Source: Bdellovibrionota bacterium (GTDB lineage Bacteria; Bdellovibrionota; UBA1018; CAIPTA01; JAALKR01). Taken from it: a stretch of 64,000 nt of DNA. This document shows positions 3,025 to 12,913 of the stretch, one piece after another. The position numbers and the translations under genes were made by a program. How positions within the stretch are numbered: the stretch's first letter is position 1; the number at the start of each line of letters is the position of its first letter. The stretch covers positions 54,197-118,196 of the forward strand of contig CBDBMJ010000003.1 in the NCBI GenBank assembly GCA_965207455.1, read 5' to 3'. The notes under the pieces were generated by a model that saw nothing but the letters and a program-made list of their open reading frames with translations, was not told where the DNA came from and did no database searches.

Positions 3025-3751
3025 TCGCCAATCCTGGAAAACTTTCTAAAACAGTCTCGTGACTAATATACTCTATAATTAAAGACCAGCCCCTATAAAT
3101 TTTTGCTTCAATGCCACCTCCAATGATCATACCAGCCACACCTTCTTGCAATGTATCCATCCTAAGAGCAAACTCCCCCCCCAATAAAATAAAAGGAGAA
3201 ACCGACAAAGGAATCAAATGATAGGTGAGAAAAAAACTGCCCACAAACTTCTGCTCCTTCACCTTGGGGTGAAAAAATCGAGAACTGGCAGCAATACCCA
3301 TTCCCAAGCGATTGAAGTTATGGGTCATAAAAGCTCCCACACCAGGGGTGCGCCCCTCCCCACTAATGGCAAAAAGGTTGGAGCGATACCCTTTTCTACC
3401 TAAAACAGGATGACGATAGGCTTTATTGGGCTGCAAATCCTCTGCCAACTGTGCCTCCAGCTTTGTGAAATCAATATTTTCATCAGGCCTGTGGGTTCTT
3501 CTTTTCTTCAGAAGCGTGCCGTCGTCCAGATCTGAAGTGGAATCCAGCGGTTCTGAGTCTAAGCGTTCTTCTGGTGAACCGGGTGATGGGGCTTCATCTG
3601 TGGTTTCATCTCTAATGTCATCTGTAGCTTCATCTGTGGTTTTATCTGTGGCTTCTTCCCGTCCCAAGCCCTGAGCGAAAACCGTTCCAACCCCTAATCC
3701 AAGGTACAGGCACACCAAGCCAAAACCCATCCATTTTCCATAGAACTTCAT
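3008..3751 (-). CDS. Outer-membrane beta-barrel protein with acidic TDEATDD repeats
   Basis: Signal peptide; low-complexity acidic N-region; C-terminal alternating hydrophobics ending ...LAIAYAF (terminal Phe, typical OMP signature). Contains a C8/G8 homopolymer. Confidence 0.5.
   Translation of the reverse strand: MKFYGKWMGFGLVCLYLGLGVGTVFAQGLGREEATDKTTDEATDDIRDETTDEAPSPGSPEERLDSEPLDSTSDLDDGTLLKKRRTHRPDENIDFTKLEAQLAEDLQPNKAYRHPVLGRKGYRSNLFAISGEGRTPGVGAFMTHNFNRLGMGIAASSRFFHPKVKEQKFVGSFFLTYHLIPLSVSPFILLGGEFALRMDTLQEGVAGMIIGGGIEAKIYRGWSLIIEYISHETVLESFPGLAIAYAF
3175..3182. repeat. Homopolymeric C8 (G8 on coding strand) tract inside OMP gene
   Basis: Counted across the line break: cccccc + cc. 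Encodes LGGEF. Confidence 0.8.
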
Positions 3752-5581: not shown

Positions 5582-7365
5582 TATACCGAACCCATACCTG
5601 TGGAGAGCTTTCTTTAGATCAAAACAAAGAAAAAGTGATCCTTAGTGGGTGGGTGGATACCCAACGAAACCATGGTGGGCTGATATTTATCGACCTTAGG
5701 GATCGTTACGGTATTACCCAATTGGTCTTTGATCCGGATCAGGGAAAAGAGTTGATGGATCAGGCCGGCAGGGTTCGTAGTGAGTATGTATTGCGAGTGG
5801 TGGGGATGGTACGCAATCGACCTGAAAATATGGTGAATACAAAGATTTCCACGGGTTCGGTGGAAGTGCTTGCTCAGGAGATCACTGTGCTGTCTGCGGC
5901 AAAAACGCCTCCTTTTGTTATTGAGGATAAGGCAAATGTTAGTGAGGATATTCGTTTGGAGTTTCGGTATTTGGATCTTCGTCGTCCATTTCTACAAAAG
6001 ATTCTTCAACTCAAGCACCGTTTTGTCCAGGGTATGCGTAACTACCTTACGGAAAAAGATTTCCTAGAGATAGACACTCCTATTTTATTTAAAAGCACTC
6101 CTGAAGGGGCAAGGGATTATTTGGTGCCGTCCAGGAATTCACAGGGATCTTTTTATGCCCTACCACAGTCTCCCCAGACCCTAAAGCAGCTTCTGATGAT
6201 CGGTGGGTTGGATCGTTATTTTCAATTTGCCCATTGTTTTCGAGATGAAGATTTGCGTTCGGACCGTCAGCCGGAGTTTGTCCAGTTGGATTTAGAAATG
6301 TCCTTTGTCAATGAGGAGTCCATCTATGCCTTAGTGGAGGGATTGATGACAGCAGCCTATAAGGAGGCTTCCAATAGTAAGCTCACCCCACCGTTTCCAC
6401 GGCTGACGTATAAAACTGCCATGGAGAAATATGGGAATGACAAGCCAGACACTCGTTTTGACTTATTGTTAGAGAACGCCAGTGCTGTGTTTGAAAAGAC
6501 AGCATTCAAGGCATTCTCTTCGGTGTTAGGGGCTGGTGGTAGTATTAAGGGTTTATGTGTAAAGGCTGGCACCGATCTTTCCCGCAAGAATATTGACAAT
6601 CTCACTTCTCTTGTGGCTCGATTTGGAGCCAAGGGTTTAGCTTGGCTAAAAGTAGAGGAGTCTTTAGTTTCTCCCATTGCAAAGTTTCTATCCTCGCAGG
6701 AGCAAAGTGCTTTAGTGAAATGTATGAAAGCAGAAAAAGGGGATTTAATTCTTTTAGTGGCAGACATTGATCCTGAGGTAGTGGATGCATCTTTGGGTAA
6801 CCTACGGGTCCATCTGGGGAAAGAGCGAAATCTAATTAAGGACAATTGTTTTAACTTTCTTTGGGTCACTGACTTTCCTCTTTTTGAATACGACTCTGAA
6901 ACAAAAACCTATTCAGCCAAGCACCACCCTTTCACTCAGCCCCATCCCGACGATATAGAGTTATTGAAAAATCAAAAAAATATGGGGGAGATACGTTCCG
7001 TGGCCTATGATCTTGTTTGTAATGGTCATGAAATTGCTGGTGGTAGTTTGCGTATTTACCAATCGGATGTGCAGGAGGCCATGTTCCGAGCCTTGAATGT
7101 AACGAAAAAAGAAGTGGAAGAAAAATTTGGTTTTTTCATACGTGCCCTACAGTACGGAACTCCTCCCCATGGCGGTATTGCCTTTGGTCTTGACCGAAAT
7201 ATCATGTTATTGACGGGAGTGAAATCCATTCGAGATGTTATTGCCTTTCCCAAGACTCAGACGGGAGCTTGTTTGATGAGTTCTTGTCCCGACCCGGTAA
7301 CAGATAAACAACTGCGAGAATTATCTATTCGGGTGAGTAAAGAGGATCGTCCCACCCCAAAATAA
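5563..7365 (+). CDS. aspS: Aspartate--tRNA ligase
   Basis: 600 aa. N-terminal OB-fold RTHTCGELSLDQNKEKVILSGWVDTQRNHGGLIFIDLRDRYGITQ and class II core FRDEDLRSDRQPEF. Overlaps hisS by 19 nt. Confidence 0.9.
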   Translation: MSKQPLVYRTHTCGELSLDQNKEKVILSGWVDTQRNHGGLIFIDLRDRYGITQLVFDPDQGKELMDQAGRVRSEYVLRVVGMVRNRPENMVNTKISTGSVEVLAQEITVLSAAKTPPFVIEDKANVSEDIRLEFRYLDLRRPFLQKILQLKHRFVQGMRNYLTEKDFLEIDTPILFKSTPEGARDYLVPSRNSQGSFYALPQSPQTLKQLLMIGGLDRYFQFAHCFRDEDLRSDRQPEFVQLDLEMSFVNEESIYALVEGLMTAAYKEASNSKLTPPFPRLTYKTAMEKYGNDKPDTRFDLLLENASAVFEKTAFKAFSSVLGAGGSIKGLCVKAGTDLSRKNIDNLTSLVARFGAKGLAWLKVEESLVSPIAKFLSSQEQSALVKCMKAEKGDLILLVADIDPEVVDASLGNLRVHLGKERNLIKDNCFNFLWVTDFPLFEYDSETKTYSAKHHPFTQPHPDDIELLKNQKNMGEIRSVAYDLVCNGHEIAGGSLRIYQSDVQEAMFRALNVTKKEVEEKFGFFIRALQYGTPPHGGIAFGLDRNIMLLTGVKSIRDVIAFPKTQTGACLMSSCPDPVTDKQLRELSIRVSKEDRPTPK

Positions 7366-8185
7366 TATTATCAATAAGACGGGTTTCGCCCAGAAAAGCA
7401 GCCAGGGCATACACAGCCTTTCCTTTTGTTTCTAGGGGCTTGAGATCGGGATAGGAAAGAATTTCCAGGTATTGGATACGAAAACTTTTTTCTGTTTGGA
7501 TTTGCTCCCTGCCCTGTTGGATAATTTCATCCACAGAGTGCTCTCCCTGTGTATAGAGCTTTGCTCCCTCCCTTAGGGTTTTGTATAAAAGAGGTGCTTT
7601 TTTTCTATCTTCGGAGGAAAGGTATTGGTTCCTAGAACTCAGTGCGAGTCCGTCGGACTCCCTCACTGTGGGACAAAACTGTAATTTCACGGGCAACAGA
7701 AGGTCCTTCACCATGCGTTCAATAACGAGGCATTGCTGAATATCTTTTTTTCCAAAGTAGGCGCAGGTGGGTTGGACGAGGGCAAAAAGACGGGCAACAA
7801 CGGTGGCCACTCCCTGGAAGTAGGTACTACGAAACTTACCACACAAGGGAGCTGAGACTCCCTCCACTTGAATATAAGAAGAAAAACCAGGGGGATAGAT
7901 AAGGGATCTATGGGGGCAAAAAAGTATGGTTAGGTTTTTTTCCCGTAAGCGATTTTTATCTTCCTCCAATGTTCTGGGGTAGACAGAAAAATCTTCGTTT
8001 TCTCCAAATTGTGTGGGGTTTACATAGATGGAAACCACGGTGCACTTGTTTTCTTTTATGGAGGCATCTACCAAAGATTCATGCCCAGGGTGGAGCGCGC
8101 CCATGGTGGGCACAAAACCAATGCTCCCTTGGCGATAGGGTTTAAGGGCATGGTTTAATTCTTCGAGAGTGGTAACGATCTTCAC
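7325..8185 (-). CDS. panC: Pantoate--beta-alanine ligase
   Basis: PTMGALHPGHESLV HIGH-like motif; 286 aa. Confidence 0.9.
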   Translation of the reverse strand: MKIVTTLEELNHALKPYRQGSIGFVPTMGALHPGHESLVDASIKENKCTVVSIYVNPTQFGENEDFSVYPRTLEEDKNRLREKNLTILFCPHRSLIYPPGFSSYIQVEGVSAPLCGKFRSTYFQGVATVVARLFALVQPTCAYFGKKDIQQCLVIERMVKDLLLPVKLQFCPTVRESDGLALSSRNQYLSSEDRKKAPLLYKTLREGAKLYTQGEHSVDEIIQQGREQIQTEKSFRIQYLEILSYPDLKPLETKGKAVYALAAFLGETRLIDNIILGWDDPLYSPE

Positions 8186-9402
8186 TAGCTACTCCAGCGA
8201 GTGTGGGCAATATCCAGTAGCCTTTGAGCAATTTCTTCCTTGGAGGCTTTCGGTAAAAACGTATGGGAAGCATTATTTTCAAAAACATATAGCTCGTTGG
8301 TATCCACATCAAAGCCAATGTCGCTTCTACTCACGTCGTTTAAAGCAATAAAATCCAAGCCCTTTGTTTTTAATTTATCCTGTGCTTTTTCCATTTGCTC
8401 TTTTTTTGTACCCACTTCTGCGGCAAATCCCATAAACACTTGCCCCGGCTTTCGCTTAGCTGTCAAAGAGGAAAGAATATCTTTTGCAGAATTAAGTTCC
8501 AGATTTAATGTTTCCTTGCGTGGAATTTTTCCTTTCTTTTCATCTTTCATTAAAAAATCGCAGACGGCGGCTGTGCTAAAAATTATATTGGCTTTGGGAA
8601 GGGCGCTAAGGGCTTGGGCTTCCATTTCATCGTTGGTTTCCACTTGAAATGTTTTTCCTTGCTCAAGCTTGGTATAGGCGGAATCTACTGGTCCGGATAT
8701 TAAGGTAACATGGGCACCCTGTTTTTCTGCTGCCCTAGCAATCATATAACCCATGCGACCACTGGATCGGTTTGTGAGAAAACGAACCGGGTCCAAATAA
8801 GTACGAGTGGGACCACTGGTAACTAAAACATGTACTCCCTTTAGGGGTTGTGATTCTAATTTCTCCGCAACCTTTTGGTATATCTCCATGGGTTCTGCCA
8901 TTTTACCCATACCCGTTTCCCCACAAGCTAAGTCTCCACTCACGGGTCCAATTTCTTCAACCTTGCGTGCCCGTAGTTTTTTTCTATTCTCTTGAGTAAT
9001 GGGTGCTTCCCACATGCGCACATTCATGGCAGGAGCCATAAAAATAGGTTTCGTGAATGCTAGGGCTTCGGTGAGAAGAGCATCGTCGCAAATTCCATGG
9101 GCGAGCTTTGCCATAAAATTTGCTGTGGCAGGAGCCACCACTAGGGCATCTCCCCATTCACAAAGGTCGATATGGGCAGTGGCAGACAGATCGTAACTCT
9201 GTTGGTCGCCTAGAGAACGAAGCACAGGATTATTGCTCAAGCTCTCCAACGTTAGTGGAGTAACAAATTGCTCTCCCTGCTTGGTTAGTATCACACGCAC
9301 ATTGGATCCATTTTTTACAAACAAGCGCACAAGCTCACAGGATTTATAGGCAGCAATTCCTCCCGTTATTCCTAAAATAATATTTTTATTAAGCAATGGC
9401 AT
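8185..9402 (-). CDS. coaBC: Bifunctional phosphopantothenoylcysteine decarboxylase/synthetase
   Basis: N-terminal flavoprotein ILGITGGIAAYKS and C-terminal DFP ligase domain; 405 aa. Confidence 0.9.
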   Translation of the reverse strand: MPLLNKNIILGITGGIAAYKSCELVRLFVKNGSNVRVILTKQGEQFVTPLTLESLSNNPVLRSLGDQQSYDLSATAHIDLCEWGDALVVAPATANFMAKLAHGICDDALLTEALAFTKPIFMAPAMNVRMWEAPITQENRKKLRARKVEEIGPVSGDLACGETGMGKMAEPMEIYQKVAEKLESQPLKGVHVLVTSGPTRTYLDPVRFLTNRSSGRMGYMIARAAEKQGAHVTLISGPVDSAYTKLEQGKTFQVETNDEMEAQALSALPKANIIFSTAAVCDFLMKDEKKGKIPRKETLNLELNSAKDILSSLTAKRKPGQVFMGFAAEVGTKKEQMEKAQDKLKTKGLDFIALNDVSRSDIGFDVDTNELYVFENNASHTFLPKASKEEIAQRLLDIAHTRWSS

Positions 9403-10165
9403 ACAAACCCTCTAACGTTAGGTTGGGTTCAAAGTGGGTAACGGACTGAGATGTTCCCTCTAACAGATACCCAAATCCACCTGTGGCAATCACGGGGCAA
9501 TCCTGGGGAAAGTTCTTTTCTTTACGAATAGCTTCCACCATACCGTCTACCATAAAAGCAAACCCATGAATGGCTCCACTACTCATGGCAGTTTTCGTAT
9601 CATGGCCCACAACGGGAAGTTCTCCCGACGATGGAGTGAGGGCAATGGGTCCAAGGAGTGCGGTTTTTTGTACCAAAGCGTTCATGGAAATTCCCACACC
9701 TGGGCTAATAATACCTCCCATATATGCAAAGCAATTTTCATTTTTCCCAATAATGTCGAAGGTAGTAGCCGTGCCTGCGTCCACAACAATTGCTGGTGCT
9801 CCAAAACGCAAAGCTCCCTGAGCATTGGCCATTCGATCAGCACCCAAGATAGCAGGGTTGGGTAATTGTATTTCAAAGGACCATGGACTGCTTTCTTTGG
9901 CTATCACTAGGGGAATACTCAGTTCATGGAACAGTTGGCTCCAAGTGGACTCCAGCGCTGGAACCACGGAAGCAAGGACTGCTTTTTCAAGCTGCTTCTC
10001 TAGAGAGTGTTTCCTACGGGAAAGGTTTGTTTCCAAGTAGGTGAAAAGCTCATCAGCATAGGCATGGCGATTGCTTTGTATGTGGAAAGTATGAAGCTTT
10101 CCATCGGACTCGAATAAGCCAAATGTTGTGCGTGAGTTGCCGATGTCAATAATGAGTTTAGCCAT
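9389..10165 (-). CDS. coaX: Type III pantothenate kinase
   Basis: MAKLIIDIGNSRTTFGLF start, ASKHA fold; 258 aa. Confidence 0.85.
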   Translation of the reverse strand: MAKLIIDIGNSRTTFGLFESDGKLHTFHIQSNRHAYADELFTYLETNLSRRKHSLEKQLEKAVLASVVPALESTWSQLFHELSIPLVIAKESSPWSFEIQLPNPAILGADRMANAQGALRFGAPAIVVDAGTATTFDIIGKNENCFAYMGGIISPGVGISMNALVQKTALLGPIALTPSSGELPVVGHDTKTAMSSGAIHGFAFMVDGMVEAIRKEKNFPQDCPVIATGGFGYLLEGTSQSVTHFEPNLTLEGLYAIA

Positions 10166-10770
10166 TATTTTTTACCTCTATTTTCATTTCTACTTTCATA
10201 TTTGGCTTCATTTTTCTTGCTATTCTTTTTTTTCTTTTCAACTTTGACTTCGGGCTTGGGTTTTGGTTTCTTATCTGGATAGTTAATTTTGTAGATAACG
10301 GGAACGCCCAGTACTTTATTTCTTATGGGTAGGAGTACAACGCTAATGCCTTGATTTATTTTTTTTAAAGAGGGGGGGGAGCTCTTTTTTCGAAGTATGG
10401 ATCTTACCATGGGTTTAAGCTCTGTGGGCCAATGGGCCACGAATTTCTTCTCAGAGAGATTTACCCAAAATTTAACATTATATTCTTTTTTATTGACATA
10501 GACTTGTCCCTCTATGCTGGATTTTTTTACGGTGGGGAACTTTTTATTATTGTCAAGTAAGAAAACACTCATTCCACTTCCTCTAATGAGTAACTCGGTT
10601 AGGAAGGTGCCTGCGGATCGAAGTTGACCACCCCTGGGGCCTACGTTTCTCCCTTTACTTTTTTGGGTATTGGAGGCTTTGGAGGTTTTTTGAGCCAACG
10701 ATGGGGGAGCTATGAGGAGAATCGCCAAGGAAAGGAACAGAAGAGAACTTTTTTTAATTTGTTTTTTCAT
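10165..10770 (-). CDS. Secreted lysine-rich hypothetical protein embedded in the pan/coa operon
   Basis: Signal peptide MKKQIKKSSLLFLSLAILLIAPPSLA; KPKPKPEVKVEKKKK tail; no family recognised. Contains a G8 tract. Confidence 0.45.
   Translation of the reverse strand: MKKQIKKSSLLFLSLAILLIAPPSLAQKTSKASNTQKSKGRNVGPRGGQLRSAGTFLTELLIRGSGMSVFLLDNNKKFPTVKKSSIEGQVYVNKKEYNVKFWVNLSEKKFVAHWPTELKPMVRSILRKKSSPPSLKKINQGISVVLLPIRNKVLGVPVIYKINYPDKKPKPKPEVKVEKKKKNSKKNEAKYESRNENRGKK
10372..10379. repeat. Homopolymeric G8 tract (C8 on coding strand, encodes SPPS) inside secreted-protein gene
   Basis: Read directly: agggggggga. Confidence 0.8.
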
Positions 10771-10771
10771 C

Positions 10772-11572
10772 CTATCCCTTGACTTGTTTTACATAATCCG
10801 AGGCAGCTCCACTGACTATTTTTTTCAAATTGCAGTAGGGCGTAGCAAACTTTGGCGTGGGACCAAAGGTATAGCCTAAGATATCATTTACCACGAGCAC
10901 CTCTCCATCACAAACAGTTCCTGCTCCGATCCCAATGGTCGGAATTTTTAATTCTTGGGTAATTTGTTCCGCTGCTGTGGGATGTAGGCACTCCAGTACC
11001 AAAGAAAAACATCCAGCTTTTTCTAAAGCTAGGGCTGATTGCACCAAGAGGTCCACATCTTTTTCCGTTTTTCCGTGGATATAAAACCCTCCCATTTGGT
11101 GTATGGACTGAGGAGTGAGACCAATGTGACCCATCACTGGGATCCCTGTCTCCACACAGCGACGGGTGAGTTCTAGAATATGGGGGGAGGCGCCCTCCAT
11201 TTTTACGGCCTGTACTCCACCCTCGCCCAAACAACGACCACTACTGATCAGACCCGTCTCCACAGAACTTTGATAGCTCATAAAAGGAAGGTCTGCGATA
11301 ACAAACGCTCGCTCACTTCCTCGAACCACGGCTGCTGAGTGTTCTATAATAGTATCCAAACGAACCTGAAGGGTATTTTCTTGACCGTAGACCACGTTGC
11401 CGATGGAGTCGCCCACGAGGAGAATATCCACACCTGCATCGTCTAGGCATTGGGCTGTCATCACATCGTAGGCTGTTAGGGCAGCTAGGCGTTCCTTGCC
11501 CTTCATGGCTTGGAGGGAGTGGAGTGTGTGTCGTTTTGTTTTGTTTTGTACGCTACTCATATTTTGTTCCAT
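10772..11572 (-). CDS. panB: 3-methyl-2-oxobutanoate hydroxymethyltransferase
   Basis: LAALTAYDVMTAQCLDDAGVDILLVGDSIGNVVYG core; 266 aa. Confidence 0.9.
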   Translation of the reverse strand: MEQNMSSVQNKTKRHTLHSLQAMKGKERLAALTAYDVMTAQCLDDAGVDILLVGDSIGNVVYGQENTLQVRLDTIIEHSAAVVRGSERAFVIADLPFMSYQSSVETGLISSGRCLGEGGVQAVKMEGASPHILELTRRCVETGIPVMGHIGLTPQSIHQMGGFYIHGKTEKDVDLLVQSALALEKAGCFSLVLECLHPTAAEQITQELKIPTIGIGAGTVCDGEVLVVNDILGYTFGPTPKFATPYCNLKKIVSGAASDYVKQVKG

Positions 11573-12479
11573 TGGTAGTTGGGTTCCTATAGCGTTCCGT
11601 TCCTTTCTTGCTAATCGGTGATCCCGATTCTATTTCTTTAGAAAACTCTTGGGCAAAAACTCCAGACTCAATATCTTCCCAAAGTTTTTCCATTCGGGGT
11701 TGAAGTTCCTTTTGGGGAAGTAAATATTCTGAAGCTCGTATGCCGCCGAACCTAGCGGTGCTACTTACTTTTTCTAACATTCCAGCCACACCCCATTCTA
11801 CCATCATATCCACGATGAGTTTGGTTTCATGCAAGCACTCATAGGTGGCTAGTGTCGGATTGATTCCTTTTTTCACAAGGTGGCGTATGCTGGCATCCAG
11901 TAGGTGGGGGATTCCCCCGCATAATAGGATTTGTTCGCTGAAAAGATCGGCGTTGGTTTCCTCGGAAAAGGTGCTTTCCAGCAAGCCCACTCGATGGCAG
12001 CCCAGTCCTGTGGCAATTGCGCGGGCAAGTTCCCAAGAATTACCCGAGGCATCCTGAGATACAGCAAGCACGCCCATCACTCCTGAACCAGCCACATAGT
12101 TTTCTCGGAGTTTTTTACCGATACCTTTCGGGGCAACGAGAATGGAGTTGTCTTGGGGAGAGAGGGGAAGTTTCCCGTACGTTACGGCAAAGCCGTGGGC
12201 AAAAACAAAGGTTCGGGGTGAGCCATCTTTGCAGTGGGTTTGGAAAAAAAGTGGAATCTTTTCATCTGGAATTAAAATGGCTATGGGGTGGAGCGCTCGA
12301 TTTTCCAGTGCCTCCTCTAGGGAGCAGGTGGCAAAGCCATCTTTTTGAGCTCGCTCAATGGAGGTTCCCTTGTTTAATGCATTGCGCCCAGAGACAGTCA
12401 CGTCCCATCCTGAGTCTTTTAGGTTTTTTGCCCATGCTTGCCCTTGATTTCCGTAGCCAATAAGTGTAATTTGTGCCAT
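11553..12479 (-). CDS. Ketol-acid reductoisomerase (IlvC)-like NADPH reductase, in the operon position of ketopantoate reductase
   Basis: IGYGNQGQAWAKNLKDSG Rossmann motif; AHGF...APKG...GLLESTFSEETNADLFSEQILLCGG...YECLHETKLIVD matches the KARI knotted domain. 308 aa, slightly shorter than class I KARI. Confidence 0.7.
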   Translation of the reverse strand: MAQITLIGYGNQGQAWAKNLKDSGWDVTVSGRNALNKGTSIERAQKDGFATCSLEEALENRALHPIAILIPDEKIPLFFQTHCKDGSPRTFVFAHGFAVTYGKLPLSPQDNSILVAPKGIGKKLRENYVAGSGVMGVLAVSQDASGNSWELARAIATGLGCHRVGLLESTFSEETNADLFSEQILLCGGIPHLLDASIRHLVKKGINPTLATYECLHETKLIVDMMVEWGVAGMLEKVSSTARFGGIRASEYLLPQKELQPRMEKLWEDIESGVFAQEFSKEIESGSPISKKGTERYRNPTTNGTKYE

Positions 12480-12505: not shown

Positions 12506-12913
12506 ATGTTACTCAACTTTATGAAAGCAAAAATTCACCGACTTCGGGTTACTCAAGCCAATCATGAGTATGAGGGGAGTGTGACCATTGATGAGCTCCT
12601 GATGAAGGAGGCAGGCATATTGCCTTATGAGCAGGTGCAGGTCTATGACGTGACCTCTGGGAGTCGTTTTGTGACGTATGCGATGGAGGGCCCTCCTGGA
12701 AAAGGGGATTGCTGTGTGAATGGAGCAGCCGCACGTTTGGTGGCTCTAGGGGATGAGGTAATTATCATGAGTTATTGCTTATTAACCCAAGAGGAGGCTT
12801 TGGATTACCAGCCCAAGGTGGTGCTTATGAATAAAGACAATTCTATTAAAGACAGTTTTACGGTTCGAGGGGGACATAAGGAAGTGGGCGCACCGTTGGT
12901 GGAAAGAAAGTAA
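12506..12913 (+). CDS. panD: Aspartate 1-decarboxylase (pyruvoyl-dependent)
   Basis: MLLNFMKAKIHRLRVTQANHEYEGSVTID with the G-S self-cleavage site; 135 aa. Confidence 0.9.
   Translation: MLLNFMKAKIHRLRVTQANHEYEGSVTIDELLMKEAGILPYEQVQVYDVTSGSRFVTYAMEGPPGKGDCCVNGAAARLVALGDEVIIMSYCLLTQEEALDYQPKVVLMNKDNSIKDSFTVRGGHKEVGAPLVERK

Follow-up and report, generated by a model that had tools for sequence, protein, structure and literature searches.

Gene order and protein features at the locus

The window, by which we mean the whole 64-kb stretch of DNA analysed, carries on its minus strand a pantothenate/CoA operon with the gene order KARI-panB-X-coaX-coaBC-panC. Position X is taken by an ORF with an ATG start (10165..10770, minus strand; ORF list), which encodes a basic beta-sandwich protein of 201 aa that is predicted to be exported. 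The operon begins with a KARI-family (IlvC-like) gene (11553..12479, minus; Pfam KARI_N and KARI_C, TIGR00465), presumed to serve as the ketopantoate reductase. It is followed by panB, the gene for ketopantoate hydroxymethyltransferase (10772..11572, minus; Pfam PF02548, 5.9e-96; TIGR00222), and on the other side of the ORF lie coaX, encoding a type III pantothenate kinase (9389..10165, minus; Pfam PF03309, 1.1e-50), coaBC (8185..9402, minus; Pfam DFP and Flavoprotein) and panC (7325..8185, minus; Pfam Pantoate_ligase). A panD gene (12506..12913, plus; Pfam Asp_decarbox) is divergent from the operon. The earlier note on this DNA had described a same-strand protein with a signal peptide between coaX and panB, and the ORF list together with the Pfam assignments of the neighbors confirms that arrangement.

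The ORF is tightly embedded among these genes. A single base lies between the TAG of panB and its ATG (TAG-G-ATG), its TAA overlaps the ATG of coaX (TAATG), and coaX has an upstream GAGG Shine-Dalgarno sequence of its own. A scan that used consensus sequences only found neither a terminator signal above background inside the operon nor a promoter excess, and tRNA, Rfam and promoter/terminator scans returned nothing relevant.

Residues 1-26 form a predicted Sec signal peptide (10693..10770, minus; read from the sequence), with the sequence MKKQIKKSSLLFLSLAILLIAPPSLA followed by QK. Its n-region is basic, its hydrophobic core is 13 residues long, and its cleavage motif is of the small-x-small kind. 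In a 13-member alignment most members have a similar hydrophobic N-terminus with a linker of variable sequence behind it, and n-, h- and c-regions with A-x-A-like sites are legible in most relatives. These features suggest that the product is exported by the Sec pathway. The next recognizable unit is a conserved domain at residues 42-162 (10285..10647, minus), marked by 25 positions that are invariant across 15 aligned family members, among them G48, R51, E59, E96, W114, P115, R150 and Y160. In an AF2 model the domain is a beta-sandwich with pLDDT of ~90, against values below 50 for the signal-peptide segment, and its pI is 9.2-10.7 in every family member tested.

The domain is interrupted by a variable loop at residues 119-141 (10348..10416, minus), where gaps in pairwise and multiple alignments reveal an insert of ~16 residues (…VRSILRKKSSPPSLKK…) present in this genome only; the mean pLDDT of the 10-residue block over residues 131-140 is ~50. 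Beyond the domain, alignment, composition and low pLDDT delimit a Lys-rich, low-complexity C-terminal tail at residues 163-201 (10168..10284, minus), in which 14 of 39 residues are Lys (38 of 201 in the whole protein) and which gives a weak, sub-threshold match to the polyproline TonB_N model (E 0.04). This genome is practically alone in having such a tail: most orthologues stop a few residues past the domain, and a short basic extension is found in one (P0007) only.

The loop contains a run of eight C in the coding sense, which reads as G8 on the plus strand (10372..10379). It occupies nucleotides 392-399 of the ORF, starting from codon 131 of 201 and thus ~65% into the gene, within the codons AGC TCC CCC CCC TCT. 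The earlier note had located this tract exactly and read it as SPPS, and in the frame of the ORF it is part of SSPPS. Two A8 runs, T8 on the plus strand, are also present: one at 10226..10233 in Lys codons, and one at 10359..10366 encoding part of LKKIN, 5 bases from the G8 run. A sequencing error or a pseudogene at the homopolymer was considered and rejected, since conserved sequence is found on both sides of the tract in the same frame.

Conservation of the slot between panB and coaX

Relatives of the ORF were collected by a panB-anchored scan, an exhaustive HMMER search and profile searches. A word-indexed protein search with the ORF returned the query alone, and a genome-contig scan and an exact-sequence contig look-up gave no match. 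The sequences of this genome are themselves solitary: with 15 billion proteins clustered at 90% identity, the products of panB, coaX, coaBC and aspS of the window each stand alone in their cluster, as does that of the ORF. The ORF belongs to an unannotated family, which we name here the pan-operon CrdA-like family; at E<1e-10, a library of 1.84 billion proteins yielded 11 cluster representatives of it. Searches of Pfam, NCBIfam and PDB sequences with the ORF, 15 family members and more distant relatives gave no meaningful match, in agreement with the earlier note's description of the product as a protein of unknown function.

An orthologue occupies the same place in all 11 related loci with readable context. 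It directly follows panB in 11 of 11, coaX is directly downstream in each of the 10 loci long enough to contain it, and a KARI-family gene stands at the same operon position in every full-length related locus. The earlier note had regarded such a gene as unexpected in a biosynthetic operon, an impression that this regularity does not bear out. The arrangement spans considerable divergence: orthologues are 36-42% identical to the window protein, full-length matches to PanB and CoaX are 59-66% and 44-58% identical to theirs, and the orthologous gene copies range from 34 to 61% GC. Start and stop codons in the relatives' operons overlap by 4-14 nt. For one pair of orthologues pN was 0.24 and pS 0.78; these proportions were used in place of dN/dS because synonymous sites are saturated at that pS. 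Together with the 25 invariant positions, this ratio indicates that the gene is probably functional. Judged by its conservation, the ORF is a genuine gene and a regular part of the pantothenate/CoA operon within a single Oligoflexia (Bdellovibrionota) lineage.

That the gene stays with the pan/CoA operon without exception over such deep divergence points to some functional connection with the pathway, and this connection is left unexplained by the explanation that we consider best. The synteny of neighboring genes (rmuC, VanZ, PD40/UbiA) is also partly kept within the clade, and therefore conservation of position alone is no proof of functional coupling.

Ancestry and proposed function

Relatives outside the operon family are ~130-aa periplasmic proteins of a second unannotated family, whose signature is A↓HG…GPHGG.IQMPGAFHTE (P0015-P0020; loci L032-L111; the arrow marks the predicted cleavage site). 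The homology has statistical support. Matches between the two families reach phmmer E-values of 2.5e-6 to 8e-4 among 1.84 billion proteins, hhalign aligns them over 101 columns with 98% probability (E 1.4e-13), and an HMM of the second family (A4) matches the window ORF at 9.8e-18. Both families share the order of strands and the motifs G-P-x-G-G…G-x-F-x-x-E, VYLLD, R and Y. What belongs to the second family and not to that of the window is an invariant His at the N-terminus left by the predicted cleavage, the likewise invariant Met and His of the motif, and two Cys.

The genomic settings differ as well. In the metagenome DNA scan from which the context of the His/Met family was taken, 33 of 41 loci have an RND pump, HMA-ATPase, CsoR, MerR or OEP gene within 4 kb. 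The window family, in contrast, does not adjoin RND pumps, HMA P-type ATPases or CsoR/MerR regulators, and no RND, HMA-ATPase, CsoR, MerR or OEP homologue was found in six pan loci or in the 64-kb window. The His/Met family is common, is not covered by Pfam or NCBIfam, and probably consists of CrdA-like copper chaperones. The pan-operon family appears, from these alignments and contexts, to descend from such periplasmic copper/metal-efflux helper proteins with a His/Met motif.

The candidate metal ligands did not survive this descent. Among 15 members of the pan-operon family there is no invariant His, Met or Cys. A tally of nine members gave no more than 3 His per protein, and 1-4 Met. The H, M and H of GPHGG.IQMPGAFHTE align with R, with S or D, and with a variable residue, respectively, and there is no Cys.

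We propose the following reading, to which as a whole we assign a probability of about 0.6: the protein is an exported, operon-bound descendant of a CrdA-like ancestor that has lost its ligands and become a basic binder or scaffold, and the G8 run is incidental to it. Under this hypothesis the ancestor would have belonged to the CrdA-like periplasmic family that has the His/Met motif and whose genes adjoin those for RND and P-type-ATPase metal efflux. The branch found in the operon would then have shed its candidate ligands for metal and acquired a strongly basic character, and in one Oligoflexia lineage it would be an integral, translationally packed member of the operon. The small protein would be exported via Sec to the periplasm or envelope, with a layout of signal peptide, short Lys-rich linker, 120-residue Ig-like beta-sandwich and, in this genome only, a Lys-rich tail. 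Its present role is most likely non-enzymatic, a periplasmic binding or scaffold function for an anionic partner, and we infer that it does not carry copper.

A different way to account for the operon linkage is that the protein is a working part of pantothenate/CoA metabolism itself, as a periplasmic binder or sensor or as an envelope factor that tracks CoA synthesis; pantothenate, pantetheine and beta-alanine are conceivable ligands. This would make direct sense of the 11 of 11 linked loci with their overlapping or abutting codons across 34-61% GC, and of the fact that no family member with readable context lies outside a pan operon. The conserved R51, E59, E96, W114, R150 and Y160 could also make up a small-molecule site. 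However, every known step of the pathway takes place in the cytoplasm, and all of them are encoded here. Fold and ancestry point to metallochaperone-like binders rather than to solute-binding proteins. The family is moreover confined to a narrow clade, its 11 cluster representatives standing among 1.84 billion proteins, and pan operons elsewhere evidently do without it. We regard this explanation as unlikely. If the linkage between panB and coaX is nonetheless functional, the protein would be an unrecognized extracytoplasmic accessory of pantothenate/CoA metabolism.

In a bolder version, a ligand-less descendant of a copper-efflux chaperone, still exported, would have been recruited in the Oligoflexia lineage as an obligate partner of the pantothenate/CoA pathway. 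Its conceivable roles include periplasmic capture or sensing of pantothenate, pantetheine or a precursor, and coupling of envelope status to CoA synthesis. We hold this to be rather improbable, and if true it would add a periplasmic component to a pathway that has been held to be wholly cytoplasmic.

That the protein has remained a periplasmic metal chaperone of the CrdA/CopC type, with non-canonical ligands, is in our judgment very unlikely. Its homology to a family encoded beside metal-efflux genes is what such a function would predict, but the aligned ligand positions have been replaced, no His, Met or Cys is conserved, efflux and metal-regulator genes are missing from the neighborhood, and a domain pI of 9.2-10.7 is unfavorable to cation binding.

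The same low standing applies to a location in the cytoplasm or at the membrane. In that case the hydrophobic N-terminus would escape cleavage and anchor the protein, and the basic domain would contact something anionic in the cytoplasm, for example nucleic acid or an acidic surface on a Pan or Coa enzyme. The very basic mature end and domain fit this idea, as do the Lys residues directly after the hydrophobic segment of the window protein, at +2 and +5 after the predicted cleavage site. Lys at these positions can slow Sec export in Escherichia coli, which counts against the reading that we prefer. Several orthologues, however, have acidic or neutral linkers past an A-x-A-type site (AYA↓QNETDSD, AFA↓GDTTT), and in the related His/Met family the predicted cleavage exposes the N-terminal His in a periplasmic efflux context.

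The G8 run and comparison with known systems

The earlier note had put the gene forward as a candidate for phase variation, with the G8 run as a selected slipped-strand switch that would turn the exported protein ON and OFF within populations. Its premise is correct to the extent that a ±1 change truncates the protein: C7 yields a product of 134 aa and C9 one of 142 aa, and both lack residues 142-162, which form the last two conserved strands. The tract does fall within the gene of a protein predicted to be exported, and the one further G/C 8-mer of the window (3175..3182) is likewise in an ORF with a signal-peptide-like N-terminus.

However, the frequency of such tracts is that expected from codon usage. 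When synonymous codons were resampled in 69 window ORFs, with protein sequence and codon usage kept constant, 1.99 ± 1.29 G/C runs of at least 8 were expected and 2 were observed (P = 0.61), and runs of at least 6 were depleted (10 observed against 17.2 expected). CCC and TCC are the commonest codons for Pro and Ser. Nor is the tract conserved: it is missing from the 10 orthologous genes, in which the longest G/C run is at most 5, and it falls within the disordered insert that this genome alone has. Its position, codon 131 of 201, is far from the 5' end, and its length of 8 is below the cut-off of at least 9 that PhasomeIt uses for poly-G/C in Neisseria (PMC5953494), a comparison that is indicative only, since thresholds vary by species. 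An OFF state would also place a premature stop ~200 nt upstream of coaX-coaBC-panC, with a presumed risk of polarity on an essential pathway.

We therefore find no positive support for the phase-variation proposal, the tract being unique to this genome, present at chance frequency and situated in a low-confidence, lineage-specific loop, and we consider a contingency locus very improbable. The G8 run would instead be a by-product of frequently used codons (TCC-CCC-CCC) in a loop that the protein can spare; it can slip like any 8-mer, yet it would not be a selected ON/OFF switch. The earlier note had itself set against its proposal the case of a conserved operon member with a known function; the conserved half of that description holds in 11 of 11 loci, and the half concerning a known function does not. 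The locus is thus a cautionary case, in which a G/C 8-mer within an exported protein resembles a phase switch but is explained by codon usage, is not conserved and lies in a dispensable loop. The point that remains is a modest one: an unannotated family with a CrdA-like fold, metal ligands lost and strongly basic in character, has been fixed between panB and coaX throughout a clade of Oligoflexia.

Set beside the phase-variable genes of Neisseria, Campylobacter and Haemophilus, the window gene is alike in having an intragenic G/C homopolymer at which a ±1 change truncates an exported protein. It differs in that its tract has 8 units, is neither enriched nor conserved, and lies late in an ORF of an essential biosynthetic operon in a free-living environmental lineage.

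The protein itself can be compared with several known proteins. DUF4426 (PA0388, PDB 3uc2) is one, although the window family has no Pfam match to it; DUF4426 has no known function, and the likeness therefore explains nothing mechanistically. A small beta-sandwich fold is common to the window family and to proteins of the CrdA/CopC type. The 15 family members have no Pfam match to CopC/PcoC (PF04234) even at E up to 10, and a PDB profile search likewise gave nothing at E up to 10. The metal ligands of CopC/PcoC and of the P19/Tp34/HftA periplasmic Cu/Fe binders are absent from the window family, and the likeness to them is that of a common fold, one that immunoglobulin and fibronectin domains also have.

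CrdA of Helicobacter pylori (PDB 9ll2/9ll4), from the crdAB-czcBA efflux operon, is another parallel. Like the product predicted for the window gene, it is small and periplasmic and has a signal peptide, and its setting beside RND efflux genes (PMC12319023) is also that of the His/Met relatives. Identity to the window protein is ~10%, with no match at the level of sequence. CrdA binds copper via a Met-rich loop, MMXEMPGMXXMXEM (PMC9182242), whereas in the window family, which is strongly basic, Met, His and Cys are not conserved; and where CrdA is encoded in an efflux operon, the window family is encoded in an operon for pantothenate and CoA.

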